A program made the position numbers and the translations under genes. Positions 491 to 34,895 of a stretch of 35,925 nucleotides of DNA are shown here, one piece after another. This DNA comes from Bacteroidia bacterium (GTDB lineage Bacteria; Bacteroidota; Bacteroidia; AKYH767-A; 2013-40CM-41-45), in contig DATDOJ010000264.1 of the NCBI GenBank assembly GCA_035293345.1, positions 1 through 35,925 of the forward strand, read 5' to 3'. The notes below the pieces were generated by a model. That model worked only from the letters and a program-made list of their open reading frames with translations, did not search any database and was not told the DNA's origin. Numbering within the stretch: position 1 is the stretch's first letter; each line of letters begins with the position of its first letter.

Positions 491-2191
491 TTAAATTTTC
501 ACAAGCTTCTTAACTCCCACACTCCTGTTGCCTTCTTTTACATTAATAAAATAAACTCCCGCAGGCAGCGTGCTGATGCTGATGTTGGTTTGGGTGTTTG
601 TGACAGGAACAGTGAGGATTTTCGCTCCAAGGAAATTATAAATGCTTAGGGTGGTATTTGGTTTTACATTGTTGCTGAGGGAAAGAAGAAGTTCGTGGGA
701 GGCGGGGTTGGGGGAGATTAATATCCTATTCTCCATATTATAAGCCCAATCGGGTATCTCAGTTGGAAAGTCGGCTATTTTCTCTACAAAAATGTCATAC
801 CCACCAGTTGAAATCAAATTATACATCCCGAAGCCAGGGTCAAAATCAGCTGTCGCAGAAAAACCACCTGTTGTATATACATTCCCAATTGCGTCAACAG
901 CCATGGATATGCTTCTATCAGAACCTGCCCCGCCCATTTGTACAGCCCAAAGAAAATTTCCGGAAGGGCTAAACTTCGAAACGAAAATATCATCGCTACC
1001 ACTTGATGTCAAGTTATATGTTCCAATGTCTGGATTAAAGTCAACTGTACCAGCAAACCATCCTGTTGTATAAACATTTCCGCTAAGATCAAAATCAATT
1101 GAGAATCCTTCCTCAGTATTTGCTCCACCCATTTGTTTTGCCCAAATAAAATTCCCCGAAGAACTCAACTTGGAAACATAAACATCAAGCATTCCTATTT
1201 CGTTCAGAATATACGTTCCGGGACCAGGATCGAAGTCAGCGTTGCCACCAAAACTGCCGGTTGTATAAACATTTCCGCCCGCATCTACAGAAATTGAATG
1301 AGCATAGCCACCGCCATCAATTCCTCCGAATTGTTTTGCCCAAATAAAATTTCCGGAAGAGTTAAGTTTAGAAACAAAAATTTCATACCCAAAATCCGAC
1401 ATCATATTATAGATTCCCGTGCCTGGATTAAAGTCAGCCGTGTCTTCAAAGATTCCGGTTGTATAAACGTTTCCGCTGGCATCAACTGCAATGCCATAAC
1501 CAGTATCATCACTTGTCCCGCCCATTTGTTTTGCCCAAAGGAAATTCCCGGAAGCATCAAGTTTGGAAACAAAAATATCATCAATGCCAAACGAGGTGAG
1601 ATTATACGTTCCAGTACTGGGGTCAAAGTCAACTGTATTGTAAAATGCTCCTGTTGTATAAACATTTCCGCTGGCATCAACAGTAATGGCAGTACCTTCT
1701 TCATAGTTAGTCCCGCTCAATTGTTTTGCCCACAGAAAATTACCTGAAGCGTCAAGCTTTGAAACAAAAATATCATCATTGCCGAAAGCGGTCAGATTAT
1801 ATATTCCAATGCCAGGGTCAAAGTCAACAGTTCCTTTAAAGAACCCTGTTGTATAAACATTTCCACCAGTATCAACGGCAATTGAATAACCGGCTTCATT
1901 ATCTGTCCCACTCATAGCGCCTGCCCAAATAAAATTTCCCGAAGCGTCAAGTTTGCAAACAAAAATATCACCACTTCCTGCAGAAGTCAGATTAAATACT
2001 CCGCTCCCCGGGTCAAAGTCAACTATGCCGACAAAATATCCAGTTGTATAAACATTTCCGGTCGCATCAATAGCAATAGATTCACCAGCGTCCGTGCTTG
2101 TTCCTCCCATTTGTTTTGCCCATACAAAGTTTTGTGCATAAATAAAATTGCTTGCAAAAAAAGAAATGGAGAGAAGAATAATTTTTTTCAT
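491..2191 (-). CDS. secreted SBBP (beta-propeller) repeat protein with T9SS type A C-terminal sorting domain
   Basis: N-terminal signal peptide MKKIILLSISFFASNFIYAQ. About ten tandem ~47-aa repeats of the form SGNVYTTGxFxGTVDFDPGxGxYNLTSxGxxDIFVSKLDASGNFLWAKQMGG, the SBBP repeat pattern. The C-terminus ISPNPASHELLL...GVYFINVKEGNRSVGVKKLVKI matches the Por/T9SS sorting-domain pattern. Confidence 0.9.
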   Translation of the reverse strand: MKKIILLSISFFASNFIYAQNFVWAKQMGGTSTDAGESIAIDATGNVYTTGYFVGIVDFDPGSGVFNLTSAGSGDIFVCKLDASGNFIWAGAMSGTDNEAGYSIAVDTGGNVYTTGFFKGTVDFDPGIGIYNLTAFGNDDIFVSKLDASGNFLWAKQLSGTNYEEGTAITVDASGNVYTTGAFYNTVDFDPSTGTYNLTSFGIDDIFVSKLDASGNFLWAKQMGGTSDDTGYGIAVDASGNVYTTGIFEDTADFNPGTGIYNMMSDFGYEIFVSKLNSSGNFIWAKQFGGIDGGGYAHSISVDAGGNVYTTGSFGGNADFDPGPGTYILNEIGMLDVYVSKLSSSGNFIWAKQMGGANTEEGFSIDFDLSGNVYTTGWFAGTVDFNPDIGTYNLTSSGSDDIFVSKFSPSGNFLWAVQMGGAGSDRSISMAVDAIGNVYTTGGFSATADFDPGFGMYNLISTGGYDIFVEKIADFPTEIPDWAYNMENRILISPNPASHELLLSLSNNVKPNTTLSIYNFLGAKILTVPVTNTQTNISISTLPAGVYFINVKEGNRSVGVKKLVKI

Positions 2192-12463: not shown

Positions 12464-12497
12464 ACGTCCTCCTGTAAACCGGAGGACGTTTCTTTTT
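12464..12497. terminator. intrinsic terminator between convergent genes
   Basis: Perfect 9-bp stem ACGTCCTCC (12464..12472) / GGAGGACGT (12481..12489) with loop TGTAAACC, followed by TTTCTTTTT. Confidence 0.75.
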
Positions 12498-13345
12498 CAC
12501 TTTGAAGCTGCATTTTTCTTTTCTGCTTCTTCTTCAAACTCCCTGATGTGTTTTGTGAAATAATCCAATGAAGAGCTGAAATTCTCTTGGGTAATATGCT
12601 CACCATAACAGGTGCAGTAATAGGGAAAATCATGGTCCCCTATAATGCTTGATAAGTGAGACGTCTTGAAACATTCCATATCAAAAATGCGGGGTCTTAA
12701 ATACCTTTTCGTGCCGAGCAGGTTTTCTTTCTCCATTAACTGAACGGATTGCCTCAGGAAAGCCAAAGGGATTCTAAGCCAAACAAAGTTCACAGGAACC
12801 GATGTTATACGGAAATCCCTGTCAGCAAGCAACAGCATTCCCGGCAGCACGTTGTCGAGTTGAAGCGGCAATGATTTAGTCAAAGGAATGTTGTCGATAA
12901 ATCTCCTGAAGTGTGCACTATCTTCAATCCCGGTAACCGTGCACATGATGGTAAACATTTTTCCCGCAGGATAAACTGCTGTATTGTGCTTATACGAAGT
13001 GGATTTTTCTGAAGGCCATTCAAACAAAATATTTCTTTGTTCGCGGACTTTGTCCCAAAGGGCTGAAAAACATTTATCCGACCAGAGTTTCAGCCCGGCA
13101 AAATCAGTACATACAGCATCAGACAAAGATGGTTGAAGACAAGAGCGGATATGGCGTCCTTCAAAATAGGTGTGCACTTCGCAATGTGTGCCCTTCCATA
13201 CAACAGAATGAACGCGCTGGCCATCCATTTCATAGTCAGCGGTGAGGATGTTGTTTTCAAAACAGATACTCGGTTCTTTCAGAGTTCCGTAGCCGAGGTA
13301 AAGGGGAAGTTCTCTCTCCTCGCCAAACTGAATCATGTAACTCAT
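12497..13345 (-). CDS. hypothetical protein (282 aa), no recognisable domain
   Basis: Long ATG-started ORF with no competing frame, no signal peptide and no TM segment. It contains several Cys/His-containing patches (THCEVHTYFEGRH, DHDFPYYCTCYGEH). I cannot place it in a family. Confidence 0.7.
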   Translation of the reverse strand: MSYMIQFGEERELPLYLGYGTLKEPSICFENNILTADYEMDGQRVHSVVWKGTHCEVHTYFEGRHIRSCLQPSLSDAVCTDFAGLKLWSDKCFSALWDKVREQRNILFEWPSEKSTSYKHNTAVYPAGKMFTIMCTVTGIEDSAHFRRFIDNIPLTKSLPLQLDNVLPGMLLLADRDFRITSVPVNFVWLRIPLAFLRQSVQLMEKENLLGTKRYLRPRIFDMECFKTSHLSSIIGDHDFPYYCTCYGEHITQENFSSSLDYFTKHIREFEEEAEKKNAASK

Positions 13346-13639
13346 AGGTAAAAGTTTTACAGGATGAATAAATCACTCTGCACCATGAGCGCTGAAAAAT
13401 AAATGCAGAAACGCGGGTGAAAAATTTCCCGAGATTTTTTTGTTCCGCTGAGCGGAGCCGCATTGTTTTGGCACCGTTGGTTTCTCTAACCCGGTTGCCG
13501 ACCTTTTTCAGGTACTCTTAATGCAGGCACAAATATAAAAGCAATTTTTCTTTTGACAAACAGGCTTCTGAAAAACTTTTTGTCAGAGGGCAAACATGAA
13601 AGCGATTCTTCCGTAAGAATTGAACAGATAATAAAGAAT

Positions 13640-16176: not shown

Positions 16177-18831
16177 TTAACTACCTAACTCTGTCACGGA
16201 TGAAACTCTTTTATAAATGACATCATCAAAATTCTCGAAGTGCGCTATTCCGCAATCAATTTTCATTTGTTCGCTTGGTCGCAATTGCTCATCCTTTGAT
16301 TTTGTTTCTGCAACAAAATAAATTCTCTTTTCATTTTTAAACACCACTGCCCAGTCAGGGCGATACTTTCCGATTGGGGTATTAATTTCAAACTTATTAG
16401 GCAGTTTGAAATAGAATTCGATTTGCTCACTGCTCTCGCAATCTTTTGCAAATTGATTTTCTACTTTACTGTCAAGAGGGCAATAGTTTTCATAAATTGT
16501 TTTGTCAGTGTCTTTCACAGTTTGAGTGAAATCATCAATGTAAATTTCAATGTCGCTGTCATCAAACAGAGTCATTTCATAAATCTTGCCTCCGATTTTC
16601 TCATATTTAATTCCGTCAATCATTAATTGGTTTAACTGTTCTTTGATTTTTGAAACAACATTGTCCATAAACATTTGTGGGTTTAGTAATAACTCTTTTA
16701 ATCGTTTGGAAGTTTTAAGAATTTCAAAAATGGTGCTTCGTGTCAATTCTGTTTTGCTTTGTATGTAAGCAAGTGAATCAGGAATTTCAAATTGAACTCC
16801 AAAGCTATCGTCTGCACTATCACTTATTAATTGCCCATCTATCCCCTCTTCCGTAATCAATACTTTTTTCTTTGTTGACCTGATGGATGGTTTTTTTGTT
16901 TCATCCATTTTGCTTACTGCATTTGCGGAAAGTGTAATGAGTTTGGCAGTATCGTAGCTGACATTGTATTTTGTTTGATGTCTTATCTTTTCCCAAATCC
17001 GTAGGAACTTCGGATCTGCCTCAAACCCTTTTCTGTAATTTACTTTCTTCTTATCATTTAAATTTTTTATCCTGCCTGTAAATTCTACACCGCAATCTCT
17101 TTCTATTTCCTCTTGTAAACCTTTCGCATAATCTTCAAATCTTTCGTTTGCAATAACAGTCAACTTATTCAAATTCCTGTCCTTTTCTCTATCTCCATTT
17201 TGATTTACGCAAATGCGCAAACCTCTTCCTATTGTTTGTCTTTTATCTCTTTCTGTATTTATTTCTCTCAATGTGCAAATCTGAAATACATTAGGATTAT
17301 CCCAGCCTTCTTTTAATGCTGAGTGACTAAATATAAAACGAAGCGGAACATTGACATCAAGCAACCTTTCTTTGTCCTGCATAATGAGTTTGTATGTATC
17401 ATCATCTAATTGTGTTTCTCCTCCAGTATCTTTAAATCTTCCCTTGTTGTCCTGAGAGAAATAACCATTGTGCAGTTCCTCGACTGAATAAGTAATCAAA
17501 TCTTTGTACGCAGGTTTGGAAATTTCCTTTTGATAAATTTCTTCAAACCATTGTGCAAATTTTCCCTTTAGAGAATTTCCGCTGGAATCATAGTCACGAT
17601 AATTTTTTACCTTGTCAATGAAGAAAAGAGAAAGGACTTTTATTCCTTTCTCTTTATACTTCTTTTCCTTTTTCAAATGTTCCTCGACTGTTTTGGCAAT
17701 CATGAAACGCATCACCTCATCATTCATTCCGCCTTGCGTTTCACCCTTCTGTAAAACCATTCCACTCGGACTTAATTCAATTTGTTCATTGCCAAAATCA
17801 AATTCAGATATTCTTAACCCATCGTATTTTTCATTTTTGTTTGATAATAGAAACAGGTCGTCTTTCCCAACATTTGCTGTAACGGATTTTCTTTTTATCC
17901 CGTCTTCTGTGGCAACATCTATTTTTATTTTTGCTTTGATTGAATTACCTATCCGGGTGATGTTTTCTAGTTGAAGAAACGGGCTGTTGAAATCATTCTC
18001 ACTTACCACAGAATCAACTTCTATCTGCTTAACTAACCCTAAGTCATATGCTTTCACAGGATTTAGTGAATACATCAGATTATAAAGATTAGCATGTGTT
18101 GCAGAATAACGAAGCGTACAAAGAGGTTCTAAATTTTGAATTGCCTTTTTCCGAATGTCTGTTTCCATATTCTGCGGTTCGTCAATAATGACAATCGGCT
18201 TACAGCTTTGAATAAATTCAATTGGTCTTTTTCCATAGGTGTTATCCCTTTGCTGATTGATAATGTTAGCATCCTTGGCAAAGGAATCAATATTGATTAC
18301 TATAATCTGCACGCTGTTAGCCGATGCAAATCCTTTCAGGTTGGAAACCTTCCTGCTGTCGTAAACATCATAACTGAGCGGAACTTTATTGTAAAGATTT
18401 TGCAAATGCTCGTGGGTGATTTTAAGATTTTTCAAAACGCCTTCACGAATAGCAACTGATGGAACAACTATTACAAACTTTTTGAATCCATATAGCTTAT
18501 TCAATTCATAAATGGTACGGAGATAGACATAGGTCTTTCCCGTACCTGTTTCCATTTCAACAGAAAAGTTCCAACCATGCGCAAGAATTTCCTCTCGCGT
18601 CAAGATATTCAGAGCGTTATTCTTCTGAATGTGCTGAATGTTTTCTGTTAACTGGTCAAGGCGGGAAAAATCAATCTTGTTTCCGAAACCATTTTCAGAG
18701 AGCATTGCTCCGGGTTGTGTAAAAGAAAATTCAAAGTCGCCACTGCTCAGCGACTGTCCTTCAAAAATATCCGTGATAGCCCTGATGGCATCAATCTGAT
18801 ATTCCTGCTGGCTGTCAAATTGTAATTTCAT
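16177..18831 (-). CDS. res: Type III restriction-modification system, restriction/helicase subunit (Res)
   Basis: Typical Res N-terminus (MKLQFDSQQEYQIDAIRAITDIFEGQ), SF2 helicase motif I METGTGKTYVY, motif II VIIDEPQNM, and an endonuclease-like C-terminal region (KYRPDWAVVF...YFVAETK). The start overlaps the mod stop by 4 nt (ATGA). Confidence 0.9.
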   Translation of the reverse strand: MKLQFDSQQEYQIDAIRAITDIFEGQSLSSGDFEFSFTQPGAMLSENGFGNKIDFSRLDQLTENIQHIQKNNALNILTREEILAHGWNFSVEMETGTGKTYVYLRTIYELNKLYGFKKFVIVVPSVAIREGVLKNLKITHEHLQNLYNKVPLSYDVYDSRKVSNLKGFASANSVQIIVINIDSFAKDANIINQQRDNTYGKRPIEFIQSCKPIVIIDEPQNMETDIRKKAIQNLEPLCTLRYSATHANLYNLMYSLNPVKAYDLGLVKQIEVDSVVSENDFNSPFLQLENITRIGNSIKAKIKIDVATEDGIKRKSVTANVGKDDLFLLSNKNEKYDGLRISEFDFGNEQIELSPSGMVLQKGETQGGMNDEVMRFMIAKTVEEHLKKEKKYKEKGIKVLSLFFIDKVKNYRDYDSSGNSLKGKFAQWFEEIYQKEISKPAYKDLITYSVEELHNGYFSQDNKGRFKDTGGETQLDDDTYKLIMQDKERLLDVNVPLRFIFSHSALKEGWDNPNVFQICTLREINTERDKRQTIGRGLRICVNQNGDREKDRNLNKLTVIANERFEDYAKGLQEEIERDCGVEFTGRIKNLNDKKKVNYRKGFEADPKFLRIWEKIRHQTKYNVSYDTAKLITLSANAVSKMDETKKPSIRSTKKKVLITEEGIDGQLISDSADDSFGVQFEIPDSLAYIQSKTELTRSTIFEILKTSKRLKELLLNPQMFMDNVVSKIKEQLNQLMIDGIKYEKIGGKIYEMTLFDDSDIEIYIDDFTQTVKDTDKTIYENYCPLDSKVENQFAKDCESSEQIEFYFKLPNKFEINTPIGKYRPDWAVVFKNEKRIYFVAETKSKDEQLRPSEQMKIDCGIAHFENFDDVIYKRVSSVTELGS

Positions 18832-20771
18832 ATCGTCTTAAAATCTATTTCAGCATCACGCATCTGCAACATGGTATTCGTTTTCAGTTGGTCATTGCCT
18901 GTGAAAAGTTTATCAAGCGTAATTACTTTTTTTGGTTTAGCAGAAATGATTTGAGTAATTGTTTTCTGATTCATTTCTTCTAAAGCAATGATAAGTTCTC
19001 CGTCATTTACGGAATAATATTTTTCTTTAGCTTCAACATTATCCGTGAGTAAGCTGCCTGCTTTGAGCATTAGCTCATAAAGCATATTTTCTTTTTCGCT
19101 TCCTTCTTTTACCGGCTTGGTGAAAACCTCTAATTGTTGTTCTAAGTTTTCTTCCGTGATTTCATTGCCTCTCCATATCTTGAAATTGGACGATGCGAGT
19201 TTGAAAACTTTGAAACCTAAATCAAGATTTTTGTTTTCGTCCTCATTCAAAAGATTTTTGCTTTCTTTTATTTCTTTTTCAATTTTCTTTATTACTCTCC
19301 TGATTCTTTCCTTTGAAATGTCAGCGATAGTTTTGTAACCTGCTTTGTATGCCTCACTGTTTTCACCACACAATTCAGGCAATTGAACTAAAATAAATTT
19401 TCTGTTGCCTCCATCTTCTTTGTTCTTTTCTAAAACTGCTTGGGCAGTAGTTCCTGAACCCCCAAAGAAATCAAGAACTATATCGTCATCTTCAATTGAT
19501 AAGTTTATAATTTGTTTTACAAGTGCAACTGGTTTAGGAAAGTCAAAAACATTTTCAAATCCTAATTCTCTTAATTCTACTGTTCCAGTTTCAGTTAAGA
19601 AACTATTATCATCCCAAATTGATTTTGGCTTATACGTTGTCTTTCTATATTTTTCATAAATTCCAAATGAACCATCGCCTTTCTTCTTTCCTATTAAATT
19701 ACTTTGAAGTGTATGTTCGTTAATGTTTGCAATACACTTTTTTTGTCCCCAACGCCAACAGCTTTCCTTCTTCTCCGAATTGAGAGGCAATACTTCAAGA
19801 GCATATTTTTCATTCTTCACCAAACTAACTGGTGAAAATCCATCCTTGTCAGATATTTTTGGATTTACATAAACAGGATAAAAAAGATTTGGTCTATTAT
19901 GTTTGCCAAACTTCGGGTTCCTATTTCTTAATTCCCTTATATTATAATTTCCAATATCATCTTTGAGATTCAAGTCATTATTCTCTTCATCTTTTTCTAA
20001 TTCATTTAAATCCGTCTCAAAATTTTTAGTGTAAACAAGGATGTATTCGTGAGTTTTCGCAATTTGTTTAAAGGTTTGTCCTCTGCTATTTGACCTTACA
20101 ATAACTTGAGCAAAGAAATTCTCCTCTCCAAAAATTTCATTCATCAACAACCGAAGGTTGTGAACTTCATTATCATCAATGTGAACGAAAACAACTCCAT
20201 CATCTGTCAATAAATTTTTTGCTAAGAACAAACGGGGATACATCATGCTTAACCAATTGCTGTGAAAGTGTCCGCTGTCTTTGCTATTCTTCCTGAAGAA
20301 CCCTTCCTTCATTAAATAACCTTCTTCGTCTTTTTCGCCAATTCGCTTTTGATATTCTTCTTTACTTTCTTTAAAACTGTCGGGGTAAATAAAACTGTCG
20401 TTACCTGTATTGTAAGGAGGGTCAATTTCAACAACCTTTACTTTTCCGTAATATGCCTTCTGCAAAACTTTCAGCACTTCCAAATTTTCTCCTTCAATAA
20501 AAACGTTTTCTGTTTTGTCAAAGTTTATGGATTCTTGCTCAGTTGGTTTTAAAGTAGCGGTTGTGGGTTGCTGCAACACTTTAAAGGCGTCTGTCTTTCC
20601 CGCCCAGTTCAAAACGTAACGCTCATTGAGGAACTCAAGATTTTCTTTTCCAAGAGTTGCCTGAAGTTTTTCCCAATCAATTTTTCCTTCCGTAATTGCT
20701 TCAGGAAAAAGTTGTTTCAGTTTTTCTAACTGGTCTTGAAGTATGTCTAATGATTTACCGAGGTCGCTCAT
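18828..20771 (-). CDS. mod: Type III restriction-modification system, N6-adenine DNA methyltransferase subunit (Mod)
   Basis: Catalytic motif IV EIDPPYNTGNDSFIY and SAM-binding motif I VLDFFGGSGTTAQAV, in beta-class order with a variable target-recognition region between them. Gene order mod-res with translational coupling. Confidence 0.92.
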   Translation of the reverse strand: MSDLGKSLDILQDQLEKLKQLFPEAITEGKIDWEKLQATLGKENLEFLNERYVLNWAGKTDAFKVLQQPTTATLKPTEQESINFDKTENVFIEGENLEVLKVLQKAYYGKVKVVEIDPPYNTGNDSFIYPDSFKESKEEYQKRIGEKDEEGYLMKEGFFRKNSKDSGHFHSNWLSMMYPRLFLAKNLLTDDGVVFVHIDDNEVHNLRLLMNEIFGEENFFAQVIVRSNSRGQTFKQIAKTHEYILVYTKNFETDLNELEKDEENNDLNLKDDIGNYNIRELRNRNPKFGKHNRPNLFYPVYVNPKISDKDGFSPVSLVKNEKYALEVLPLNSEKKESCWRWGQKKCIANINEHTLQSNLIGKKKGDGSFGIYEKYRKTTYKPKSIWDDNSFLTETGTVELRELGFENVFDFPKPVALVKQIINLSIEDDDIVLDFFGGSGTTAQAVLEKNKEDGGNRKFILVQLPELCGENSEAYKAGYKTIADISKERIRRVIKKIEKEIKESKNLLNEDENKNLDLGFKVFKLASSNFKIWRGNEITEENLEQQLEVFTKPVKEGSEKENMLYELMLKAGSLLTDNVEAKEKYYSVNDGELIIALEEMNQKTITQIISAKPKKVITLDKLFTGNDQLKTNTMLQMRDAEIDFKTI

Positions 20772-21154
20772 GCTTTTGTGTGTTTAGCCCCGGCTTGAAA
20801 AACACAACGCGGGACTTATGTAACTTATCGCCCGTAGGTACATCCAAGCACCCCCATGCAAATAAGCTACGCCCGCGCTGTACGCGAGCGCTTCGCCTAT
20901 TCCTTGCATGGTTAAATTTTGGATGTTTTTACGGGCAAGAATTTGCTAACGCAAATTTTTATATGTCTTTAGTTTTTACACGATAGTTTTTGTTTTACAG
21001 TTTGAGCAAATGTATTTTATTTTGGGATTGGTTTTCCCTCACCCAGCTTCGGCAAGTTCAGCACCCGCTCAGCAGGATTTATAATCCTGCAATTTCATTC
21101 CCTTTCAAATCCATCCCCGCCAATCCGCGGCAGACCTAATTCCTTTCCATGTTT

Positions 21155-21433
21155 AACCCTGCCGGAGAAAGGCAGGGTTGTTTTTCTTTCATGTGTACCT
21201 CTGCCCATTGCAGGCAGGGTTACTTCTTCTTAAAACATAGGTCTGCCGGAGTTCGGCAGGGTTACAATTGCTTAAAAGATAGCCCTGCTTGTCACGAGCA
21301 GGGTTACATCTGTCTAAAAGACAGGTCTGCCGATGGCCGGCAGGGTTACATTTTCCTTAATCCTAACTCTGCTTATCGCTGGCAGGGGTATCTCTGACTT
21401 AAACATGACTCTGTCGATGGCGGGCGGGATTAC
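21155..21433 (+). ncRNA. array of seven tandem ~42-bp hairpin units (candidate multi-hairpin ncRNA or structured leader; function unknown)
   Basis: Unit consensus is cTTAAAAgAnAGgt-CTGCCg-(5-7 nt loop)-cGGCAG-GGTTAC.
Stems by unit:
- U1: AACCCTGCC/GGCAGGGTT, 21155-21179.
- U2: CTGCC/GGCAG, 21201-21217.
- U3: CTGCCG/CGGCAG, 21243-21259.
- U4: CCCTGCT/AGCAGGG, 21283-21303.
- U5: CTGCCG/CGGCAG, 21327-21343.
- U6: 21367-21387, with G-U pairs.
- U7: 21411-21427, degenerate.
The strand call rests only on the downstream + strand terminator-like hairpin. Confidence 0.5.
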
Positions 21434-21451
21434 TTTTCTTTCAGATTTGCT

Positions 21452-21482
21452 TCTGTTCATGAAGAACAGATATATATTTTTT
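21452..21482 (+). terminator. terminator-like hairpin closing the hairpin array
   Basis: TCTGTTC (21452..21458), loop ATGAA, GAACAGA (21464..21470), then TATATATTTTTT. The stem is AT-rich, so it is only moderately stable. Confidence 0.45.
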
Positions 21483-21547
21483 AAAGAGGTAACGTTTTGA
21501 GGGGGAAGTGCATTAATACTATAGGAGTATTCATAAAACCAAAGACC

Positions 21548-22177
21548 ATGAAAAAGTTTCTTGTAAAATTAGAGTTGTGGAAAAAATCCATTCCACAAAA
21601 AATTGATTTGGGCAAAGGCATATTCAAAGCAATGACAGGCAATGCAAATTTCCTATCGCCCGACCCATCGCTGGCAGAACTTGATGATGCTGTCAATGAA
21701 CTTGCAGGCGCTTCTGCCGAGGTGGAAAGTCATGGAGGCGGCACGCTGTATACATCTGTTATGAATAAGAAGGAAGATGCTTTTGATGAGGTGATGCGCA
21801 GGATGGGGCGTTACGTTGATAACACGGCAAAGGGAAATGAAAACATCATCCGCTCGGCAGGCATGGATGTGAAGAAGCAGCGCGAACCGGCACAGCTATG
21901 TGCTGCTGCTGAAAATCTTTCTGCAACACCCGGGCTGCTTTCCGGTTCTATTGACCTCCGCTGGAAACGCCCGAAGTTTGCAGTGGGGCATAACATCTAC
22001 GTGAGCGCTGACATTGAGAATAACAATGCGTGGAAACTCATCGGGCAAACAACCAACACACGGTTTACGGTTACGGGACTGGAGCCGCTGAAAGTTTATT
22101 GGTTCAAAGTGGAAGGCATCGGCTCGGCAGGCACGGGCGCTGCCAGCGACCCGGCAATGACGCATGCGGCTATGTGA
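21548..22177 (+). CDS. fibronectin type III domain protein with helical N-terminal domain and no signal peptide
   Basis: Start moved to the ATG at 21548 (MKKFLVKLELWKK...). The C-terminal ~90 aa has an FN3 pattern (LSATPGLLSGSIDLRWKRPKFAVGHNIYVS...WKLIGQTTNTRFTVTGLEPLKVYWFKVEGIGSAG). Confidence 0.75.
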   Translation: MKKFLVKLELWKKSIPQKIDLGKGIFKAMTGNANFLSPDPSLAELDDAVNELAGASAEVESHGGGTLYTSVMNKKEDAFDEVMRRMGRYVDNTAKGNENIIRSAGMDVKKQREPAQLCAAAENLSATPGLLSGSIDLRWKRPKFAVGHNIYVSADIENNNAWKLIGQTTNTRFTVTGLEPLKVYWFKVEGIGSAGTGAASDPAMTHAAM

Positions 22178-27181: not shown

Positions 27182-28024
27182 TCACTCCCCTGCCGCTTTC
27201 AGTTTTGCCAGTTGCATAAGCTGCAATGCGCGCGCGCTCGGCACAAACTGCTGAAACGCACTTCGCTGCATCAATCCTTTTCTGCGCATGAGTATCATGA
27301 GCTTTCCCAATCCCCCGCTCGAATAGCCGGTGAGCTTTTGCAACTCTTCATACCTGCCGCTGCCTTTGTTATAGAAATGAATCAGCAGCCGCGCTGCCCC
27401 CTCGCGTGCCGAATCGCGCGAGCGCTGGAATATTTGCTTCTCAAGCACTGCCGCAAGCATATAAATATTTTGGTCTGATGAATTTATCGTTTGGGGAAGG
27501 GAAGAAACGGGTTCATTTGCTCCCATGGTTTGCTCAAGAGCAAGATGAACCGATTGCTTCGATGCAGTTTCCTTTTCCGAAGCGGGAAGAATATTTTCAT
27601 TATGTGGAATTGTTGATAAGGAATCGGACGAAACCACTTCATTCGTTCCACTCTCCTTTTGAGAAGGGGATAAAATGGGTTCGTTCATTCCACTTTCCTT
27701 TTTGGGAGTGGGCGAAATGGACTCATTCATTCCCTTTTCCTTTTTGGAATCGGATGAAATGAACTCATTCATTCCGCTTTCCTTTTGCAGAGTGGATGAA
27801 ATCAACTCATTTGTCCCGATTTCCTTTTGAGGATTGGATGGATACAGTTGAATTATCCCACTCTCCTGCGATGGATTGGAAGAAACAGGATTATTTCCCC
27901 CTGTTTGATTTCCGGCACGGGTATTATTCAACTTAAGCATATCAATTTGTTCCAGCAGTACGGATATAATCTTGCGTAACTGTACAATTTCATTTTGCAA
28001 AGCGGATATATCGGGAGCATCCAT
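27182..28024 (-). CDS. coiled-coil / tandem 14-aa repeat / possible winged-helix DNA-binding protein
   Basis: N-terminal heptad segment ISALQNEIVQLRKIISVLLEQIDMLKL. Five 14-aa repeats xxxxKE(S/I/K)G(M/T)NExIS. The C-terminal ~90 aa resembles a MarR-like wHTH (ARLLIHFYNKGSGRYEELQKLTGYSSGGLGKLMILMRRKGLMQRS). TACATTTG, a -7 box on the minus strand, is at 28073..28080. Confidence 0.75.
   Translation of the reverse strand: MDAPDISALQNEIVQLRKIISVLLEQIDMLKLNNTRAGNQTGGNNPVSSNPSQESGIIQLYPSNPQKEIGTNELISSTLQKESGMNEFISSDSKKEKGMNESISPTPKKESGMNEPILSPSQKESGTNEVVSSDSLSTIPHNENILPASEKETASKQSVHLALEQTMGANEPVSSLPQTINSSDQNIYMLAAVLEKQIFQRSRDSAREGAARLLIHFYNKGSGRYEELQKLTGYSSGGLGKLMILMRRKGLMQRSAFQQFVPSARALQLMQLAKLKAAGE
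27621..27830. repeat. five tandem 42-bp repeats inside the coding sequence
   Basis: Units start at about 27621, 27663, 27705, 27747 and 27789. An example unit is GAATCGGATGAAATGAACTCATTCATTCCGCTTTCCTTTTGC. They encode the 14-aa protein repeats and also create the spurious antisense ORF 27406..27762. Confidence 0.9.
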
Positions 28025-28191: not shown

Positions 28192-31100
28192 CTATTCTTT
28201 CTTAATCACTCTCACAAAACCGTGATATGATTTCTTGTCGGGCGTGTTGAGGATATAATAATAAGTGTCGTCATTCACTTCGGCAGCATCCCAGTTGTTC
28301 AGGTATTTGTCCGCTTTAAACACAAGCATTCCCCAGCGGTTAAATATTTCGAGAGCGGAGTTTGCGGGCAATCCCTCAATCACAAAATAGTCGTTGTAGC
28401 CGGGAGAGTTGGGTCTGGGAGTGAACACGTTCGGGATGACAAAGTCGGGGAATAAAAGAATGAGCGTGTCCGTTGCTGCATTGCAGGCATTGGCGGAGTG
28501 AAGCACAAGATAAATGAAGCCGCTGTTGTAATCCGTTTGGCTCGGATGATAGACAGCATTGAGCGAGAAGGAATCGGGAGTGAATGTTCCCGAGCCGGTG
28601 GTTGTCCACCAGCCGCCACCTGCCCCTGTCACCGTTCCGGCAATCGTTGCTGTTGCACCGCGGTTCACGGTTTGGTCAGGTCCTGCATATACACTGAGGA
28701 AGGAGTTCACTGCAACAATAATAGTGTCGCTTTGGTTGGTGCAGATGTTTCCTGTGGTTGTGAGAATAAGCGTTACCGTTCCTGCTGCAATGTCAGCAGC
28801 ACCGGGGATATATGTGGCATTGAGTGTTTGCGCGTTAGGGATAAATGTTCCGTCACCAAGAGTTGTCCATATTCCTCCTCCTGCATTCTGTGTTATTCCG
28901 TTAAGCACTAATGAATCTATATTGCAGATGGCAGTGTCGTTTCCGGCAATGGCAACGCCCCACGGATTTACAAATACTCTGACGCTGTCAGAAGCTGAAC
29001 ATCCGGTGGCATTCGTTACGGTAACAAAGTATATTGTGGTTAGCGCGGGAGAAACAATAATGGATGATGTGGTGTCATTGCCCGGTGTCCATAGATAGGT
29101 AACACCACCGGCTGCCGTTAATGTGGCGCTGTCGCCAAAGCAAATCGTTGTATCGGAAGTTATTGTCACTATGGGGAGAGGAACTATGGTGAGTGTGACA
29201 AACGCTGTGTCGTTGGGACAGGGAGCATTGGCAACAACCATGTAGAGAATGATTATGCCCGTGTCCGCAGGCGAGGGCGTGTAAATGGTTGTGTCATTAT
29301 TCAGGTCGCTGAATATGCCGCTGCCTGAAGTGAACCAGGAAAGATTTGCCGTTGATGCATCACCGTACAATTGTATCGGTTGACTTACGCAGATGACAGT
29401 ATCGGTTGGCGTAGCTGTTGCAACAGGTTTCGGGTTAATGAAAACGTTGTATGATACCGGCAAGCCGGTGCATCCATTTGCCGAAACCTCCACGATGGTC
29501 AATGAGCCGGAAGGCGGAGCGCCCCACGTTACAGTCACGCTGTTCGAACTGTCATTCGGACTCGTGATTGTTCCGTTATTAATTGTCCAGAGATAATAAG
29601 AACCCGCTGTGGGATTGACGCCATACGTAACTCCCGTGTCGCCTTCGCAAACAAGCGTGCTTCCACCGCTTAACGTTGTATTCGGGCGAGGGTTAATGAC
29701 GATGTTTGTGATTAAAGCACTTCCCGTGCAGCCGAAAGAATCTGTTTCCGAAACGGTGATGCTTCCACCGCTACCGAATCCCCAGGTCACCGTGATGGTG
29801 TCTCCGTTTTGCGTGAACAACCCTCCCGTAACAATCCAGTTGTATGTTGAGCCGGGTGTGTTGCCCACATAATAGACAGAGACATCATATTCGCAGACCG
29901 TGTCCGGACCGGTCAATATAAGAGGAGCAGGAAGAGGATGCACCACCACATTGAATGTGTCGGAAACTCCAATACATCCGAATGCATTCATCTCGGTGAC
30001 AATCACGGTTTGATTTCCGGGAGTTGTCCATTGAATATCCATTGTGTCATTTCCCTGCGCACCGGGAACTCCGCTTGAGACAACCCATGTATATATACTT
30101 CCCGCAGTTGCAGGAGATGCTATGTATTGACCGAATTCATTCTGGCAAAGCGTATCGGTTCCCGCAATTGTTATTGCAACAGGAGAAGGATTGATAGTGA
30201 CATTTAAGATTGACGTGCTTCCCATACATCCGAAGAAATTATATTCGGTGACGGAAACAGTTCCGCTGCCTGCTGCTCCCCAGTTCACCGTAATTTGATT
30301 CGACCCATTGCCGCTTGCAATTGTTCCACCTGTCACAGTCCATGAATAAACAGAACCGGCATTATTGGTTACGGAATACACTGCGCTGCTGCCTTCGCAT
30401 ACGGTGTCGGGTCCGCTGATTACAGAAGTTACAGGAAGAGGAATAACTGTTATCTGAACCGTTGCGATTGCATCAGGACAGGGAGGATTGCTCACCGTCA
30501 TGGTCAATGTGACGAACGGTACGTCTGCACTTCCGGTTGTGTATGTCGGAGATGCTGAAGTTGGATTACTGAATGTTCCGTTGCCTGATGTTGTCCAGAG
30601 AATGGTTCCGTTAGTTGCTGTCCCGTTCAACTGAACATTTCCGCCAAGGCAAACCGTATCCTGAACCGCAGTGGCGCTTGCCGTTGGCGTTCCGTTAATT
30701 GTTACTGTTAAAGTTTGCGGAGCACCGGGGCATCCGGATGAATTCACTTCAACAACAGTGATGGTTGCCGTTCCGGGAAGTCCCCAGTCAATCGTCACAG
30801 AGTTTGTTCCCTGTCCGAAAGTTATGTTTCCGTTTCCGGCAACAGACCAGTTGTATGTTGAACCGGCAGTCGGAGGAACGGAGTAAACACTTCCGAGTGT
30901 TCCTTCGCACACAAGCGTGGGTCCTGTTATCGGTGGTGTTATGGGAACAGGGTTAATGACTACATTTAATATTACAGCAGTATCAGAACAACCCACAGCA
31001 TTTGTTTCGACAACAGTAATTGTTCCGCTTCCCGGAGCGCCCCAGGTGACGTTGATGTTGCTTCCCGTTCCTGTGAGAGGAAGCCCCCCTATCACCGTCC

Positions 31101-34100
31101 ATGCATACGTTGAACCGGCAACATTGGTCACGGAATAATTGGCGCTGCTTCCCGCGCAGACGGTGTCCGGTCCTGTGATGACCGATGTGTTCGGTAAAGG
31201 ATTGATGGTAACATTCAGCACTACCGGTGCTCCTGCGCATCCGAAAGAATTTGTCTCGACAACAGTAACCGTTCCTCCGCCTGCGCTGCCCCAGTCAACA
31301 AAGATGGTGTCGTTGCCCTGACCGCTTGCGATGGTTCCGCCTGTTACTGTCCATGTGAATGTTGAACCCGCACTTCCCGATGTGGTGTACATCTGCCCGA
31401 GAACATTTTCACAAACACTTGCTGCGCCATTAATGGATGATGTGACAGGAACAGGATTTACTGTTACAACAACGGTGTCTGTATCGCTGCAGCTTCCTGT
31501 TGTTCCGATAACGATGAACTGATACGGTGAACCTGATGCAGGCAACGGAGGACTTACAACAGTGGATGAAGTTGTATCACCGTTACTCCATTGGTATGAC
31601 AGCGCACCGTTTGCCGTTAATGTCAGTGCATCTCCTTCGCAAATCGTCTGGTTGCCGCTGGTTGTCAAAACCACACCTGCTACAATCGGAATCGTTGTTG
31701 AAAGAGTATCAACGCATCCTGTTACTCCGTCTGTAACAATGACTATGAACGTATAATTGCCGACTACCGGTGGATACGTTGTTGTGACGGATGATGAATC
31801 CAAATTAGATGATGTGATATAAATATAATCAGGAGACAAATACCACTCGTATGTCGAGCCGGCACCCGCTCCTGTAATTGTGAGTATCGCCTGCAGCAGC
31901 GGGTCGGTCGTACAAAGCGCTCCCGGATTTCCTGTGAGTGTTGGCGGGGGATAAACATTCACCGTGGCAGTAACGGTTGAATCGCATCCTGATGCAGCAG
32001 CAACAGTAAGAGTAAACACTGTGGTTGTGGTTACCGTTGCCGTTGTAATTAATAATGTGTCATTTGCTATCGGAACAGGTGGCGCTGAAGTCCATAGATA
32101 TGTTGTTCCCGGGTTGGTGTCGCTGCCTGTTCCGTCAAGAGTGACCACTGTAGCAACACCGTCACAAATAATATTCGGAAGCACGGAAGCAACTGCCGCA
32201 GGATTAGTAGTGGCATTGGCGGAAACCGAAACGCTGTCCGAACATCCTGTGGATGTATCCGTCACGACAAGAGTAAACACATCACTCGTGCAGATGATAG
32301 CAGATGTAACTAATGACGATGGCGAACCAATCGGATTTCCTCCCGCGCTCGTCCAGAGATAAACCATTCCCGGTGTGCTGCCGGTGCCATTCAGCGAAAC
32401 CGTGTCGCATCCGCAGAAAGGAGGAATGGGCGATGCCACTGCAACAGGAAGCGGGTTGACATTCACCGTTGCGGTTAGCTGCTGCGTACATGTTCCTGTT
32501 GTTCCTAATACAGTAAATGTTGTTGTCGCTGTCGGAGAGACATTCTGAGAAGCAAGAGTTGAATCGGCAAACGCATAAGCCGGACTTGCCGTCCATGCAT
32601 AAGTTGTCGCGCCTGTGGCTGTGATGGTAACGGATTGCCCCGCACAAATGGTGAACGGTCCGTTTATTCCCATCGTCAAACCCGGCTGGATGGTGAAGGA
32701 TGTTGAAAGCGTATCCACGCATCCTGTTACTCCGTCTGTGACAATAACCGTGAAGTTGTATGTGGCGGGAACTCCAGAAGGATATGTTGCGGTAACAGAC
32801 GATGAGTCAACGTTAGAAGAAGTGATGTATGAATAATCAGCCGACAGGTACCACTCATAAGTGGAACCTGCACCCGCACCCGTCACCGTGAATGTTGATG
32901 TGAGTGGATTAGGGTCAGTTGCACACAACACCGAAGGCGGTGAGTTAAGTGTTGGCGGAGGGAACACGTTTAAGTCAACACAATCGGGAGTTGAAACACA
33001 GCCGAGTGAATCGGTGACCACCAGACAGTAAGTGACATTTGCAGAAACTATAGTTGTCGGATTTGCAATTGTCGAATCACTTAATCCAGTTCCGGGAGTC
33101 CATGCATAGGTGTAAGGCGGAGTACCGCTCGATGCGCTTCCGTTTAGTTGCACCGAAGAATACCTGCAAACAGTGGTATCATTTCCCGCATTGGCAATTG
33201 GCAGAGGAGTAATCACAACTGAAGTTGTATCCGTGGCAGTACAGCCGTTCGCATCGGTGATAGTGATGGTGAATACATAAGGACCACCGGGCGGCAATCC
33301 TGAAACACTCGTGTTCTGACATGTGGGGCATGCAATAGTTCCCGGACCCGACCACTGATATGAAACAGGAGCTGTTGCATTGCTGTCGGTTGATGTTAAT
33401 GACACGGCAGTGCCCTGGCAAACAGGCGATGGTGAAGCGGCAGTTACAACAGGAGGAGGAAGAAGATTGACAACGATGGTAGTTGTATCCGGTCCGCATG
33501 CTCCGTCAACGATGAGCGTCACGGTGAATGGAGGAATACCTACAAAGATGTGTGTAGGATTTTGCAGGTTGGAAGTATTGGACGGTCCCGATAGCGGGTC
33601 ACCGAAATCCCAAGACCAGTTCACGATATTCGGATTGGTGAAAGGCGGGTCGGGCAGAACACTGGCGCTCCCGGTGAAAGAAACGGGCTGCCCTACGCAT
33701 GTGGTCACAGGTGAATAGTTAATCGCAGGAAACAAATCCTGTATCGTAATTTCCTGTGTAAAAATTGTAGTGCCGCAGGCATTGGAGGCACGCAGCGAAA
33801 TTTCATAGGTGCCTATAGAGTCGTAGCAAACTGTCGTATCGGCTCCCGAAGCAGGAAGATAAGGACATGTTGTGCACAACCGCCAACTGTAGGTTACCGG
33901 TGTGCCATGAGGAATGGTGGTGTTCTGCAGTGTGATGCATGCCGGCACGCAGGCAACAATAGGGTTAGCATTGAAACTGGTTGACGGGCGGGCAATGATG
34001 CCGTCATCGGGAGTTGTGGCGGTGATGGTGAACTGTTCCGGATTGCCTGCTTCTCCGTCAACCATGATGTAATAGACCGTGCCCGGTGTAGTGGCAAAAG

Positions 34101-34455
34101 AAATGGTTGCCGAACCGGCAGGACCAAATCCGGTATCGCATGCACCGGCAATGGGAACGAGCGAGCCGCAGCTTCCTGTATAAGCCGAGATGCTTAGACC
34201 TGCGGCACTGTCAATGTTAGTAAGTGTGATAATCGCTGTTCCGTTGTTGATGCCAAGAATGGTAAACCACATGCTTCGCTGAACAACTCCGTCACCGCAT
34301 GGAAGCGCAGGGTCACTGGCAACCGTTGTTGCCCCTATCGTTGTGGAAGAAACCGAACTGCCTCCGCAAAGCGCGGTTGCATTAGCGCAATCGTCCTGTG
34401 CCCGGACCGCTGCTACCGTACAGATTAAAAAAAGAAATACCGTGAGAAATTTCAT
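28192..34455 (-). CDS. giant (2087 aa) cell-surface adhesin-like protein with Ig/PKD-like repeats and a T9SS type B (gliding motility-associated) C-terminal domain
   Basis: Signal peptide MKFLTVFLFLICTVAAVRAQ. Dozens of ~80-aa T/S/G/V-rich Ig-like modules with paired cysteines (..C.G..V.L.A.G...Y.W..). The C-terminus PNVFTPRPNSPGYNDYFVIEGLPANSALEIFNRWGMLVFKADKYLNNWDA...YYYIL...GFVRVIKKE matches the gliding-motility C-terminal domain pattern. Confidence 0.93.
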   Translation of the reverse strand: MKFLTVFLFLICTVAAVRAQDDCANATALCGGSSVSSTTIGATTVASDPALPCGDGVVQRSMWFTILGINNGTAIITLTNIDSAAGLSISAYTGSCGSLVPIAGACDTGFGPAGSATISFATTPGTVYYIMVDGEAGNPEQFTITATTPDDGIIARPSTSFNANPIVACVPACITLQNTTIPHGTPVTYSWRLCTTCPYLPASGADTTVCYDSIGTYEISLRASNACGTTIFTQEITIQDLFPAINYSPVTTCVGQPVSFTGSASVLPDPPFTNPNIVNWSWDFGDPLSGPSNTSNLQNPTHIFVGIPPFTVTLIVDGACGPDTTTIVVNLLPPPVVTAASPSPVCQGTAVSLTSTDSNATAPVSYQWSGPGTIACPTCQNTSVSGLPPGGPYVFTITITDANGCTATDTTSVVITPLPIANAGNDTTVCRYSSVQLNGSASSGTPPYTYAWTPGTGLSDSTIANPTTIVSANVTYCLVVTDSLGCVSTPDCVDLNVFPPPTLNSPPSVLCATDPNPLTSTFTVTGAGAGSTYEWYLSADYSYITSSNVDSSSVTATYPSGVPATYNFTVIVTDGVTGCVDTLSTSFTIQPGLTMGINGPFTICAGQSVTITATGATTYAWTASPAYAFADSTLASQNVSPTATTTFTVLGTTGTCTQQLTATVNVNPLPVAVASPIPPFCGCDTVSLNGTGSTPGMVYLWTSAGGNPIGSPSSLVTSAIICTSDVFTLVVTDTSTGCSDSVSVSANATTNPAAVASVLPNIICDGVATVVTLDGTGSDTNPGTTYLWTSAPPVPIANDTLLITTATVTTTTVFTLTVAAASGCDSTVTATVNVYPPPTLTGNPGALCTTDPLLQAILTITGAGAGSTYEWYLSPDYIYITSSNLDSSSVTTTYPPVVGNYTFIVIVTDGVTGCVDTLSTTIPIVAGVVLTTSGNQTICEGDALTLTANGALSYQWSNGDTTSSTVVSPPLPASGSPYQFIVIGTTGSCSDTDTVVVTVNPVPVTSSINGAASVCENVLGQMYTTSGSAGSTFTWTVTGGTIASGQGNDTIFVDWGSAGGGTVTVVETNSFGCAGAPVVLNVTINPLPNTSVITGPDTVCAGSSANYSVTNVAGSTYAWTVIGGLPLTGTGSNINVTWGAPGSGTITVVETNAVGCSDTAVILNVVINPVPITPPITGPTLVCEGTLGSVYSVPPTAGSTYNWSVAGNGNITFGQGTNSVTIDWGLPGTATITVVEVNSSGCPGAPQTLTVTINGTPTASATAVQDTVCLGGNVQLNGTATNGTILWTTSGNGTFSNPTSASPTYTTGSADVPFVTLTMTVSNPPCPDAIATVQITVIPLPVTSVISGPDTVCEGSSAVYSVTNNAGSVYSWTVTGGTIASGNGSNQITVNWGAAGSGTVSVTEYNFFGCMGSTSILNVTINPSPVAITIAGTDTLCQNEFGQYIASPATAGSIYTWVVSSGVPGAQGNDTMDIQWTTPGNQTVIVTEMNAFGCIGVSDTFNVVVHPLPAPLILTGPDTVCEYDVSVYYVGNTPGSTYNWIVTGGLFTQNGDTITVTWGFGSGGSITVSETDSFGCTGSALITNIVINPRPNTTLSGGSTLVCEGDTGVTYGVNPTAGSYYLWTINNGTITSPNDSSNSVTVTWGAPPSGSLTIVEVSANGCTGLPVSYNVFINPKPVATATPTDTVICVSQPIQLYGDASTANLSWFTSGSGIFSDLNNDTTIYTPSPADTGIIILYMVVANAPCPNDTAFVTLTIVPLPIVTITSDTTICFGDSATLTAAGGVTYLWTPGNDTTSSIIVSPALTTIYFVTVTNATGCSASDSVRVFVNPWGVAIAGNDTAICNIDSLVLNGITQNAGGGIWTTLGDGTFIPNAQTLNATYIPGAADIAAGTVTLILTTTGNICTNQSDTIIVAVNSFLSVYAGPDQTVNRGATATIAGTVTGAGGGWWTTTGSGTFTPDSFSLNAVYHPSQTDYNSGFIYLVLHSANACNAATDTLILLFPDFVIPNVFTPRPNSPGYNDYFVIEGLPANSALEIFNRWGMLVFKADKYLNNWDAAEVNDDTYYYILNTPDKKSYHGFVRVIKKE

Positions 34456-34613: not shown

Positions 34614-34895
34614 ATTCCGCTTATGTCAATGTTCATTCCACGTGTGTCAGCAGCGATTTCGCGCTTGTACGATGTCATTCCACGGCTGTAGACAGCGATT
34701 CCACGCCTGTACGATGTAATTCCACGGCTGCCGATATTGATTCCGCGCTTGTCAGCATCAATTCATCAACTGCCGAAAGTGTTGCCGCGGCTGTCGGAAA
34801 GAATGCTTCACGTGCATTGCTTTATTCCCCGATTGTCGAGGGTTTATTCCTGGCGGGCAGACCAGATGCAATTCATGCGGGTTTGAACCGCGGGA
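34614..34895. repeat. 21-bp-phased tandem array (~11-13 units, head motif ATTCCRCG) in the divergent intergenic region
   Basis: Unit heads fall at 34614, 34635, 34656, 34677, 34698, 34719, 34740, 34761, 34782, 34803 and 34824, in exact 21-bp steps; the units at 34782 and 34803 are degenerate. Looser units follow at 34846 and 34871. Alternate units resemble each other (ATTCCACGGCTGT... versus ATT(C/T)C(A/G)CGC(C/T)TGTACGATG...), giving a 42-bp higher-order period. Confidence 0.85.

Follow-up and report, generated by a model that had tools for sequence, protein, structure and literature searches.

The stretch of 35,925 nt at positions 1 to 35,925 of contig DATDOJ010000264.1 of a Bacteroidia bacterium (assembly GCA_035293345.1), called the window here over its whole length, carries a tandem array of 42-bp palindromic units directly upstream of a small gene (21548..22177, + strand) that encodes a helical bundle joined to a fibronectin type III (fn3) domain. 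The most interesting result is that this association is invariable: at 12 of the 12 distinct loci of the gene family with readable upstream DNA, a tandem array lies directly 5' of the gene and on the same strand. The linkage is to the fn3-family gene and not to the Type III restriction-modification (R-M) system on the other side of the array. The array is tentatively read as a helically phased series of double-stranded DNA binding sites that would control the downstream gene's own promoter, an interpretation to which we give somewhat less than an even chance. The repeats had been described before from the letters of the window only, and this sequence-only reading had proposed a multi-hairpin element selected for its structure. 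Its observation is confirmed and extended by the analysis, and its interpretation is partly supported.

The array is real and far beyond chance. Scanned over the whole window with up to 3 mismatches allowed, the pattern CTGCC-N7-GGCAGGGTTAC occurs 11 times where 0.12 occurrences are expected; ten of them fall at the array locus, and the eleventh, at 14325 with 3 mismatches, looks like chance. Tandem Repeats Finder reports a period of 42 with 5.7 copies at 21199-21438, and a repeat search finds six copies, 64-77% identical, whose starts run from 21200 and 21242 to 21410 at a distance of exactly 42. Set out in rows of 42 nt, the sequence resolves into 9-10 in-phase units spanning 21116-21493. 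On one side of them starts the small gene at 21548, on the other the Type III mod gene, which is divergent (minus strand, start 20771). Seven units of 42 bp had been counted from the letters; the period holds, and the number rises once the degenerate units at 21116 and 21158 and the closing hairpin are included.

Within each unit, two arms of ~11 bp make up an imperfect palindrome, behind which come a T-rich tract and TTAAAA; the dyad consists of two inverted half-sites of consensus GGCAGRGYTAY. This phased dyad is significant in the window array (z = 4.4). A division of the 42-bp unit into two full inverted 21-bp half-units was rejected, as the dyad is confined to the 11-bp arms and the linker is asymmetric (p = 0.5). 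On the + strand, the series opens with unit 0 (21116..21157), which is degenerate and in the 42-nt register (CCCGCCAATCCGCGGCAGACCTAA plus linker) and aligns with the degenerate unit 'b' of an orthologous locus, L146. Unit 1 (21158..21199) contains a near-perfect palindrome, TAACCCTGCC-GGAGAAA-GGCAGGGTTG, followed by TTTTTCTTTC, and is degenerate in L146. Units 2-7 (21200..21451) are six 42-bp units of the form aTAAC/aTAGG-TCTGCY-N5-7-GGCAG-GGTTAy with T-rich tract and TTAAAA. The terminal unit 8 (21452..21493) is made up of the palindrome TCTGTTC-ATGAA-GAACAGA (TCTGTTCATGAAGAACAGA, 21452-21470) and a T-run (21477-21482). It is the best-conserved unit, stands also 3' of the otherwise different array of locus L179 and has left a remnant in locus L184; the array units are in-phase variants of this conserved promoter-proximal palindrome. 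The sequence-only reading had taken it for a terminator hairpin closing the array. Hairpin and T-run are indeed present, but they are in phase with the repeats and form the last unit rather than a separate terminator. Likewise the conserved GGTTAC exists, but not as a separate 3' flank, since it pairs with the ATAAC/ATAGG that ends the preceding spacer; the stems quoted at the time (CTGCCG/CGGCAG, for example) exist as written. Despite ~30% substitution divergence, no indels occur in ~28 units of the window array type. To the left of the array, a further palindrome, GCAGGATTTATAATCCTGC (21072..21090, + strand, 8-bp arms), gives a terminator-like match, has a polarity opposite to that of the array units and lies just outside the segment shared with L146, in which homology begins at ~21095.

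How much of the surrounding DNA belongs to the same module? Scans with two cores placed one period apart, filtered by script, recovered one true orthologous array, L146, from the genome and metagenome collections. It matches the window unit for unit in the same 42-bp register, and the homology extends only from ~21095 to 21526. To the left of the array the sequences of the window and L146 are unrelated, so that no conserved promoter precedes the array. The left flank of L146 contains an HNH gene and MscL, and its flanks are unrelated to those of the window. The Type III R-M genes, which had been made part of the setting, are absent at L146; because the orthologous array has unrelated flanks, their adjacency in the window is incidental. 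At the other end, L174 is a contig that carries a homologue, 81% identical, of the downstream gene, and its homology to the window stops at the fn3-gene stop codon (22177). From the limits of homology to L146 and L174 follows a module of ~1.1 kb (~21095-22177) comprising the array, a promoter-like box and one ORF. The array had also been connected with both the FN3 and the GNAT gene downstream; the former connection stands and the latter falls, as L174 homology ends at the fn3 stop codon. The end of L146 and the start of L174 share an identical 18 nt. At the right end of L146 and the left end of L174, an unrelated repeat element (...CACTTCGACTTCGCTCAGTGTGACAAGAAA) lies between the promoter-like box and the fn3 start codon, and both contigs break inside it.

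The promoter-like box, GGTAAC-GTTTTGAGGGGGAAGTGC-ATTAATACTATAGG (21488..21525, + strand), lies between the array and the start codon. It is conserved in L146, L175 and L179 and partly, as GGGAACGTTTTG, in L184. Its first element, GGnAAC, resembles a -35 element of the extracytoplasmic function (ECF) type, and the box may well serve as the promoter of the gene. The segment formed by the terminal palindrome, the T-run and the box (GGnAAC...ATTAATACTATAGG) is ~85-90% identical to L175, compared with 54% at third codon positions. Relative to L146, identity amounts to 84-86% in the arms, 83-86% in the loops and 89-90% in the linkers, the yardstick being 70% at third codon positions of the coding sequence as measured against L174. 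These values show that the primary sequence is constrained, and not pairing alone, with purifying selection on the whole unit.

The product of the partner gene is 209 aa long. Its N-terminal part comprises a beta-strand and three long helices, its C-terminal part an fn3 domain. Pfam recognises the fn3 domain (26 bits), the AlphaFold2 model (mean predicted local distance difference test score 89) consists of a helical bundle plus fn3, and Foldseek matches in the PDB are restricted to the fn3 domain. The protein has no signal peptide, and its N-terminal domain finds no explanatory match in Pfam, NCBIfam, PHROG, PADLOC or the PDB. A toxin or DNA-binding fold was considered for the protein and none was found with Pfam, NCBIfam, PADLOC, the PDB or Foldseek. 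A profile search with the full-length protein is uninformative, being swamped by giant multi-fn3 proteins, and the N-terminal domain alone was used instead. This search returns at least 232 relatives of ~200 aa from Bacteroidia, Chitinophagaceae, Verrucomicrobia and others, none of which bears a functional name. A phage or plasmid origin of the gene family was rejected, as there are no matches on viral contigs, among 72,556 plasmids or among 50,697 phage records. Many of the family proteins are truncated or lie on contigs of <2 kb, and the contigs of L175, L178, L183, L184 and L182 begin inside the upstream array; the family arrays evidently break short-read assemblies.

The 12 loci with readable upstream DNA are the window, L146/L174 (taken together), L175, L178, L179, L184, L176, L177, L180, L182, L183 and L142. 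Their arrays have periods of 21, 22, 42 or 65 bp and fall into unrelated sequence families, across which the periods lie near multiples of two helical turns. The same 42-bp palindrome type as in the window is found at L175 and L178, whose proteins are 66% and 59% identical to the window's. Units of 21/42 bp precede the L184 gene (55% protein identity), units of 21 bp the L179 gene (52%) and 21/42-bp TTTACATAG / CTATGTAAA units the L176 and L177 genes (50%). Among the more distant members, the array is 65 bp x 3.1 copies at L182 (36%), has a period of 21 bp at L180 / L181 (34%) and is 22 bp x 10.9 copies at L183 (27%). L142 (31%) was located via a DNA pattern alone and proved to encode a family member. 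Its direct array of 22 bp x 11.7 copies, TGCAGGGTT[A/G]CATTGGGGTGCA, lies ~70 nt 5' of the start codon and presents the same GCAGGGTTAC core as direct 22-bp repeats, without the inverted partner. In the flanking DNA retrieved for the family loci, Tandem Repeats Finder detects no further intergenic tandem array of similar size.

What do these arrays share besides position and period? The test for a phased dyad reaches significance for the window, L175, L176, L177 and L184 and fails to do so for L179, L180, L183, L142 and L182; with 5 of 10 tested arrays positive, a universal phased dyad was rejected. ECF-type sigma-70 genes end ~5-50 nt before the array, and in the same direction, at L176 (2536-3216), L177 (1712-2308) and L179 (1843-2445). 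The L176 and L177 sigmas are orthologous (65% identical) and that of L179 is ~20% identical to them; a conserved sigma-factor partner was rejected on this ground and because the window has none. Rejected too was an association with defence islands, for which the R-M system in the window, the HNH gene in L146 and PemK in L180 might speak, given the housekeeping neighbours in L142, L175, L176 and L177. Finally, the units were considered as decoy copies of the promoter box, following a resemblance seen by eye (TTAAAACATAGG vs TTAATACTATAGG), and local alignment rejected this. When each array is compared with its own promoter-proximal region, 1 of 12 tests is nominally significant (L175, + strand, p = 0.013, a 10-nt A/T-rich match), and the alignments are no better than cross-family controls.

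How might such an array act? According to the interpretation tentatively favoured here, it would be a cis-acting double-stranded DNA element, the upstream control region of the helical-plus-fn3 gene. Each 42-bp unit would offer a two-fold symmetric site composed of the two inverted GGCAGRGYTAY half-sites, and the spacing, exactly four helical turns, would place all sites on the same face of the helix. The sites could then be bound cooperatively by a sequence-specific protein, in the simplest case a dimer, giving rise to an extended nucleoprotein complex. This complex would reach as far as the promoter-proximal palindrome (21452-21470), which is ~20 bp 5' of the GGTAAC box, and would govern how the gene is transcribed from its own promoter; the ability to form hairpins would be a by-product of the inverted half-sites. 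We infer that a protein binds the array and moves transcription up or down; candidate binders are the gene's own product and an ECF-sigma-linked regulator, and the 209-aa protein is the obvious candidate by linkage. A DNA-level role is favoured because the 42-bp spacing is exact and free of indels and near-helical periods recur in arrays of unrelated sequence. It is favoured also because the phased dyad is absent from 5 of 10 arrays and the core shared with L142 occurs there in direct orientation only, and because loops and linkers are conserved like the arms, with a conserved box downstream of the array and no conserved sequence upstream.

Several observations weigh against such control at the DNA level. 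No DNA-binding protein has been identified, and the 209-aa protein is without a recognisable DNA-binding fold. The array motif does not track the protein phylogeny, as L142 shares the array core with a protein 31% identical, and the units resemble palindromes associated with transposases, discussed below. Among non-Watson-Crick stem pairs, G·T outnumbers A·C by 20 to 5 (34 to 10 in the outer stem), and the + strand folds better than the - strand in 3 of 3 arrays of the window type. Moreover, constraint was calibrated on the assumption that the genomes behind L146 and L174 are similar, and this assumption relies on the 18-nt overlap within a repeat element. A wider proposal is that array and helical-plus-fn3 gene together make up an undescribed, self-contained two-part system, widespread in Bacteroidota and present in other phyla, in which the array sequence turns over between lineages and the array is kept. 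In one form, the array of ~21-bp-phased sites would be the target of the protein whose gene it precedes, or else of a dedicated sigma or regulator; in the other, the array repeat RNA would pair with a non-nuclease protein in the manner of type III toxin-antitoxin (TA) systems. This we hold to be possible, if on the doubtful side.

Could the palindromes function as RNA hairpins instead? In that case + strand transcription would run through the array. It would yield either an extended leader on the mRNA of the fn3-family gene or an independent RNA that stops at the last hairpin and U-run, and the hairpins would act as RNA, for example as a protein-binding scaffold or sponge. In its extreme version, this would be a type III TA-like repeat RNA that pairs with the downstream protein. 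We judge transcription of this kind unlikely, while taking it seriously. The compensatory stem changes, from which the sequence-only reading had deduced selection on structure, are real in the examples given but no more frequent than chance. In a shuffle test with 27 aligned units from four genomes, in which 3' partners were shuffled among units (500 shuffles), 83.8% of stem cells are paired against 82.9% after shuffling, with 122 of 500 shuffles as high or higher, and the covariation score is 0.253 against 0.233 (85 of 500). Stem covariation is not significant; the sequence of the stems is itself conserved, as a palindrome, and most of its changes are C/T substitutions in one arm only. A single clean compensatory change, from G-C to T-A between the orthologous copies of unit 5, does favour RNA. 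So do the excess of G·T over A·C among non-Watson-Crick stem positions, the folding of the + strand relative to shuffles (z = -6.4, with -5.1 on the - strand) and a minimum free energy per nt that is lower on the + than on the - strand in the window, L146 and L175. The G·T excess and the + strand folding are what selection on a + strand RNA would give, or transcription-coupled mutation bias. A T-rich tract follows each hairpin, and of 12 terminator-like matches in a 1-kb scan (1.4 expected) six are array units on the + strand; read-through is plausible at L176, L177 and L179, where the array closely follows the end of a sigma gene that runs in the same direction. On the other hand, loops and linkers are as conserved as stems, half of the family arrays tested are without a phased dyad and several have units of 21-22 nt. 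No conserved promoter lies 5' of the array, the conserved promoter-like box is 3' of it, and the T-run begins 6 nt past the terminal stem. The earlier failure to place the repeats in a known RNA family is borne out by Rfam, in which the array has no match at gathering thresholds and, at E up to 10, only chance-level scores of 17-22 bits, far below the gathering scores. As for the TA version, type III antitoxins have 1.9-5.6 repeats of 31-62 nt, and such loci were searched for by the criterion of an array, a palindrome and a gene on one strand (PMC3401426). The window shows the layout of the ToxIN, CptIN and TenpIN systems, with the array (21116-21451), the short palindrome (21452-21470) plus T-run and the gene (from 21548) on one strand; its 42 nt lie within the range, and repeat sequences are unrelated between relatives. 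It differs in having 9-10 diverged copies (64-77% identical), outside the range of 1.9-5.6, with 10-16 copies of 21-22-nt units in relatives, and in the conserved promoter-like box that separates array and gene. The protein, a helical bundle plus fn3, is not a ToxN-, Kid- or MazF-like endoribonuclease (AlphaFold2, Foldseek) and has no toxin match in PADLOC, Pfam or NCBIfam. The array probably exerts control at the level of DNA and is not a structured RNA with covarying stems.

Other explanations concern the origin of the units. They could be repetitive extragenic palindromes (REPs) of a Bacteroidota family, mobilised or maintained by a REP-associated tyrosine (Y1) transposase (RAYT) encoded elsewhere in the genome and reiterated head-to-tail, with generic effects on neighbours such as termination, insulation or mRNA stabilisation. 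REPs are imperfect palindromes of 20-40 nt with a conserved, GTAG-like tetranucleotide head, and many copies lie dispersed in extragenic DNA, in both orientations. With them and with bacterial interspersed mosaic elements (BIMEs) the unit shares a palindrome that is rich in GC and imperfect, a conserved tetranucleotide (GTAA) at one of its ends, an extragenic position and the capacity for tandem reiteration. Read on the minus strand, as GTAA(C/T)-CCTGCC-N7-GGCAGA, it invites comparison with the head and palindrome of GTAG-type REPs; T22/A23 are nearly invariant in the units, but the other arm carries a symmetric TA, and the head is GTAA, not GTAG. The GTAACCCTGC head-plus-stem recurs in arrays beside RAYT genes at two loci, L071 and L063. 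In L071 (JBEIPA010000045.1, a Flavobacteriales metagenome-assembled genome), at least five near-identical CCCTGCA-N11-TGCAGGGTTAC hairpins form a head-to-tail array of period 44, inside which the stored locus ends. The array starts 8 nt past the stop of an ORF (96-982) with HUH (HFHVM) and YIHNNPVKDG motifs; in the PDB, this ORF is matched best by TnpA_REP 4er8, with E = 0.034 and an alignment that takes in the tyrosine motif. PF01797 is present in several homologues of the ORF (43-51% identity), and a more distant one (37%) bears the name 'REP element-mobilizing transposase RayT'. In L063 (BJGQ01000005.1, a Bacteroidota bin; 1001-1800), a homologous RAYT-like ORF with PNHLHFIMF and YIHNNPIQ motifs adjoins clustered palindromes of the form GCAGGGTT-loop-AACCCTGC, which occur in either orientation and lie 5' of an ABC-permease-like gene. 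GTAACCCTGC-headed hairpins are REPs in some Bacteroidota, where they form direct tandem arrays, and by resemblance the L071 and L063 repeats are likely related to the window's units. Tandem head-to-tail reiteration of REP clusters is also on record (PMC3733652). The argument that direct orientation excludes REPs, put forward in the sequence-only reading, is invalid in view of these clusters and of L071: RAYT-linked REPs in Bacteroidota do form head-to-tail arrays. Against a REP cluster, no unit lies outside arrays in ~47 kb (the 36-kb window plus ~11 kb of L146, L174, L175 and L178), the window holds no RAYT homologue (tblastn with the L071 RAYT as query), and the two-core pattern scans of public collections found the window array type at the orthologous locus only. 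Position, unit consensus and exact 42-bp phase are kept upstream of the same gene down to 59-66% protein identity, at which third codon positions are near saturation; unlike REPs and BIMEs, the array has kept its place before a single gene family over a deep divergence. A symmetric TA closes the two arms, which is not so in L071, and the units resemble paralogues, in phase, of the conserved promoter-proximal palindrome. The 10-mer that the window's units share with L071 and L063 was itself the search key, so that part of the resemblance may be due to chance, and REPs leave the arrays of unrelated sequence at all 12 family loci unexplained. We rate a REP cluster as rather unlikely; it may also describe the origin of the unit without describing its present role, and if the array were a plain REP cluster the finding would be ordinary. 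Alternatively, the array could be a functionless minisatellite at a mutational hotspot, where a conserved promoter-proximal palindrome seeds duplications by slippage and the unit length reflects the size of the seed, not helical phasing. This would agree with window-type units being in-phase variants of the terminal palindrome, with the resemblance of L179 and L184 units to that palindrome (by eye only), with the young, homogeneous state of some family arrays (L183 94%, L182 90%) and with the frequency at which contigs break at them. It is improbable, however, as the array, its unit-specific loops and linkers included, is more conserved than third codon positions, ~28 diverged units are free of indels and the dyad-less arrays of L142, L183 and L180 have the same 21-22 bp period. 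The period could, lastly, be that of a coding repeat of 14 codons, for instance in the spurious 82-aa ORF (21149..21397, + strand) that runs across five units. The period is divisible by 3, and gene callers put ORFs over several family arrays. Nevertheless, stops occur in all six frames of window-type arrays, relatives have periods of 22 and 65, which 3 does not divide, and Pfam gives no match. Conservation of this very ORF had been named as evidence that would count against the hairpins; its frame has 5 stops and no start in L146. A coding repeat is scarcely credible and effectively refuted.

Phased arrays of protein-binding palindromes are found in plasmid centromeres, iterons and operators. 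Iteron plasmids carry direct repeats of ~21-22 bp, or two helical turns, beside a gene whose promoter region contains a related palindrome. At the level of the gene family, the arrays described here show the same ~21-22 bp spacing; they differ from iterons in lacking Rep winged-helix similarity and origin features, in being chromosomal and, in the window, in having 42-bp palindromic units where iterons are direct repeats of 19-22 bp. The centromere sopC of the F plasmid has 12 direct repeats of 43 bp, each with an inverted-repeat motif bound by SopB (PMC3177203). Its period and its head-to-tail plan with one palindrome per unit are almost the same as in the window. Differences are that no ParA or ParB domains occur among the Pfam-scanned ORFs of 491-26681 and the gene content is chromosomal, and that sopC is downstream of sopAB, whereas the present array is upstream of a single small gene of unrelated fold. 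BrickBuilt of Porphyromonas gingivalis is a minisatellite-miniature inverted-repeat transposable element with 23-nt units without spacers and ~19 copies per genome. Terminal inverted repeats mark its borders, it has a leader and a tail, and promoter activity has been reported for it (PMC4596501). It is likewise an intergenic tandem array of Bacteroidota, but the window array is single-locus in the sequence examined and tied to one gene family. CRISPR arrays have repeats of 24-48 bp and, between them, unique spacers about as long. The sequence-only reading was right to set CRISPR aside: the whole period is 42 bp, only the 5-7-nt loop is strongly variable and the 18-nt 'spacer' is semi-conserved. 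Consistent with this, there are no cas genes among the Pfam-scanned ORFs of 491-26681 (R-M, Pirin, fn3, GNAT-like, T9SS-tail and others), and PADLOC, run on nine selected proteins, gives Cas-type output limited to weak, chance-level Cas3b/DinG matches on the Res helicase. In architecture, the array is closest to F sopC and to iteron/operator arrays. By the criteria tested, the locus is not a member of the sopC, type III TA, iteron or BrickBuilt families.

A chromosomal gene family that is invariably preceded by a tandem array of lineage-varying sequence was not found in the literature searched. If the linkage holds across the at least 232 members, array and gene would represent a new module, made of a cis element and a gene, that extends through Bacteroidota and further, would give a direct experimental handle on an uncharacterised protein family and would explain why metagenome assemblies fragment at these loci.

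The remainder of the window offers some further observations. The Type III R-M pair (16177-20771, - strand) is complete and consists of Mod (18828-20771; PADLOC MTase_III, E = 6.6e-189) and Res (16177-18831; PADLOC REase_III, E = 2.5e-294). An S-adenosylmethionine (SAM-I/IV) riboswitch on the - strand at 13426-13529 (Rfam RF01725, 53.1 bits, above the gathering score) lies upstream of the minus-strand ORF 12497-13345 (282 aa, no Pfam match). Inside ORF 491-2191 (- strand), a repeat of 195 bp x 6.4 copies (833-2077) corresponds to the SBBP beta-propeller repeats of a protein with a type IX secretion system (T9SS) tail. A tandem repeat of 42 bp x 4.8 copies at 27626-27840 lies inside ORF 27182-28024 (- strand, 280 aa, no Pfam or PADLOC match) and is probably a 14-aa coding repeat unrelated to the hairpin array. 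A second intergenic array (34635-34865; period 21, ~10 copies, ATTCCACGnCTGT...) has no dyad symmetry and occupies the divergent region between a 2087-aa PKD/CHU_C gene (28192-34455, - strand) and an unknown gene from 35006 (+ strand); it is not linked to an fn3-family gene. A third (330-451; period 21 x 5.8 copies, AGTRTnnACTTTTAAGTTATA) has a significant phased dyad (z = 2.6) and adjoins the 3' end of the SBBP/T9SS gene 491-2191. With these two further intergenic arrays, 21-bp-period arrays seem common in this genome.

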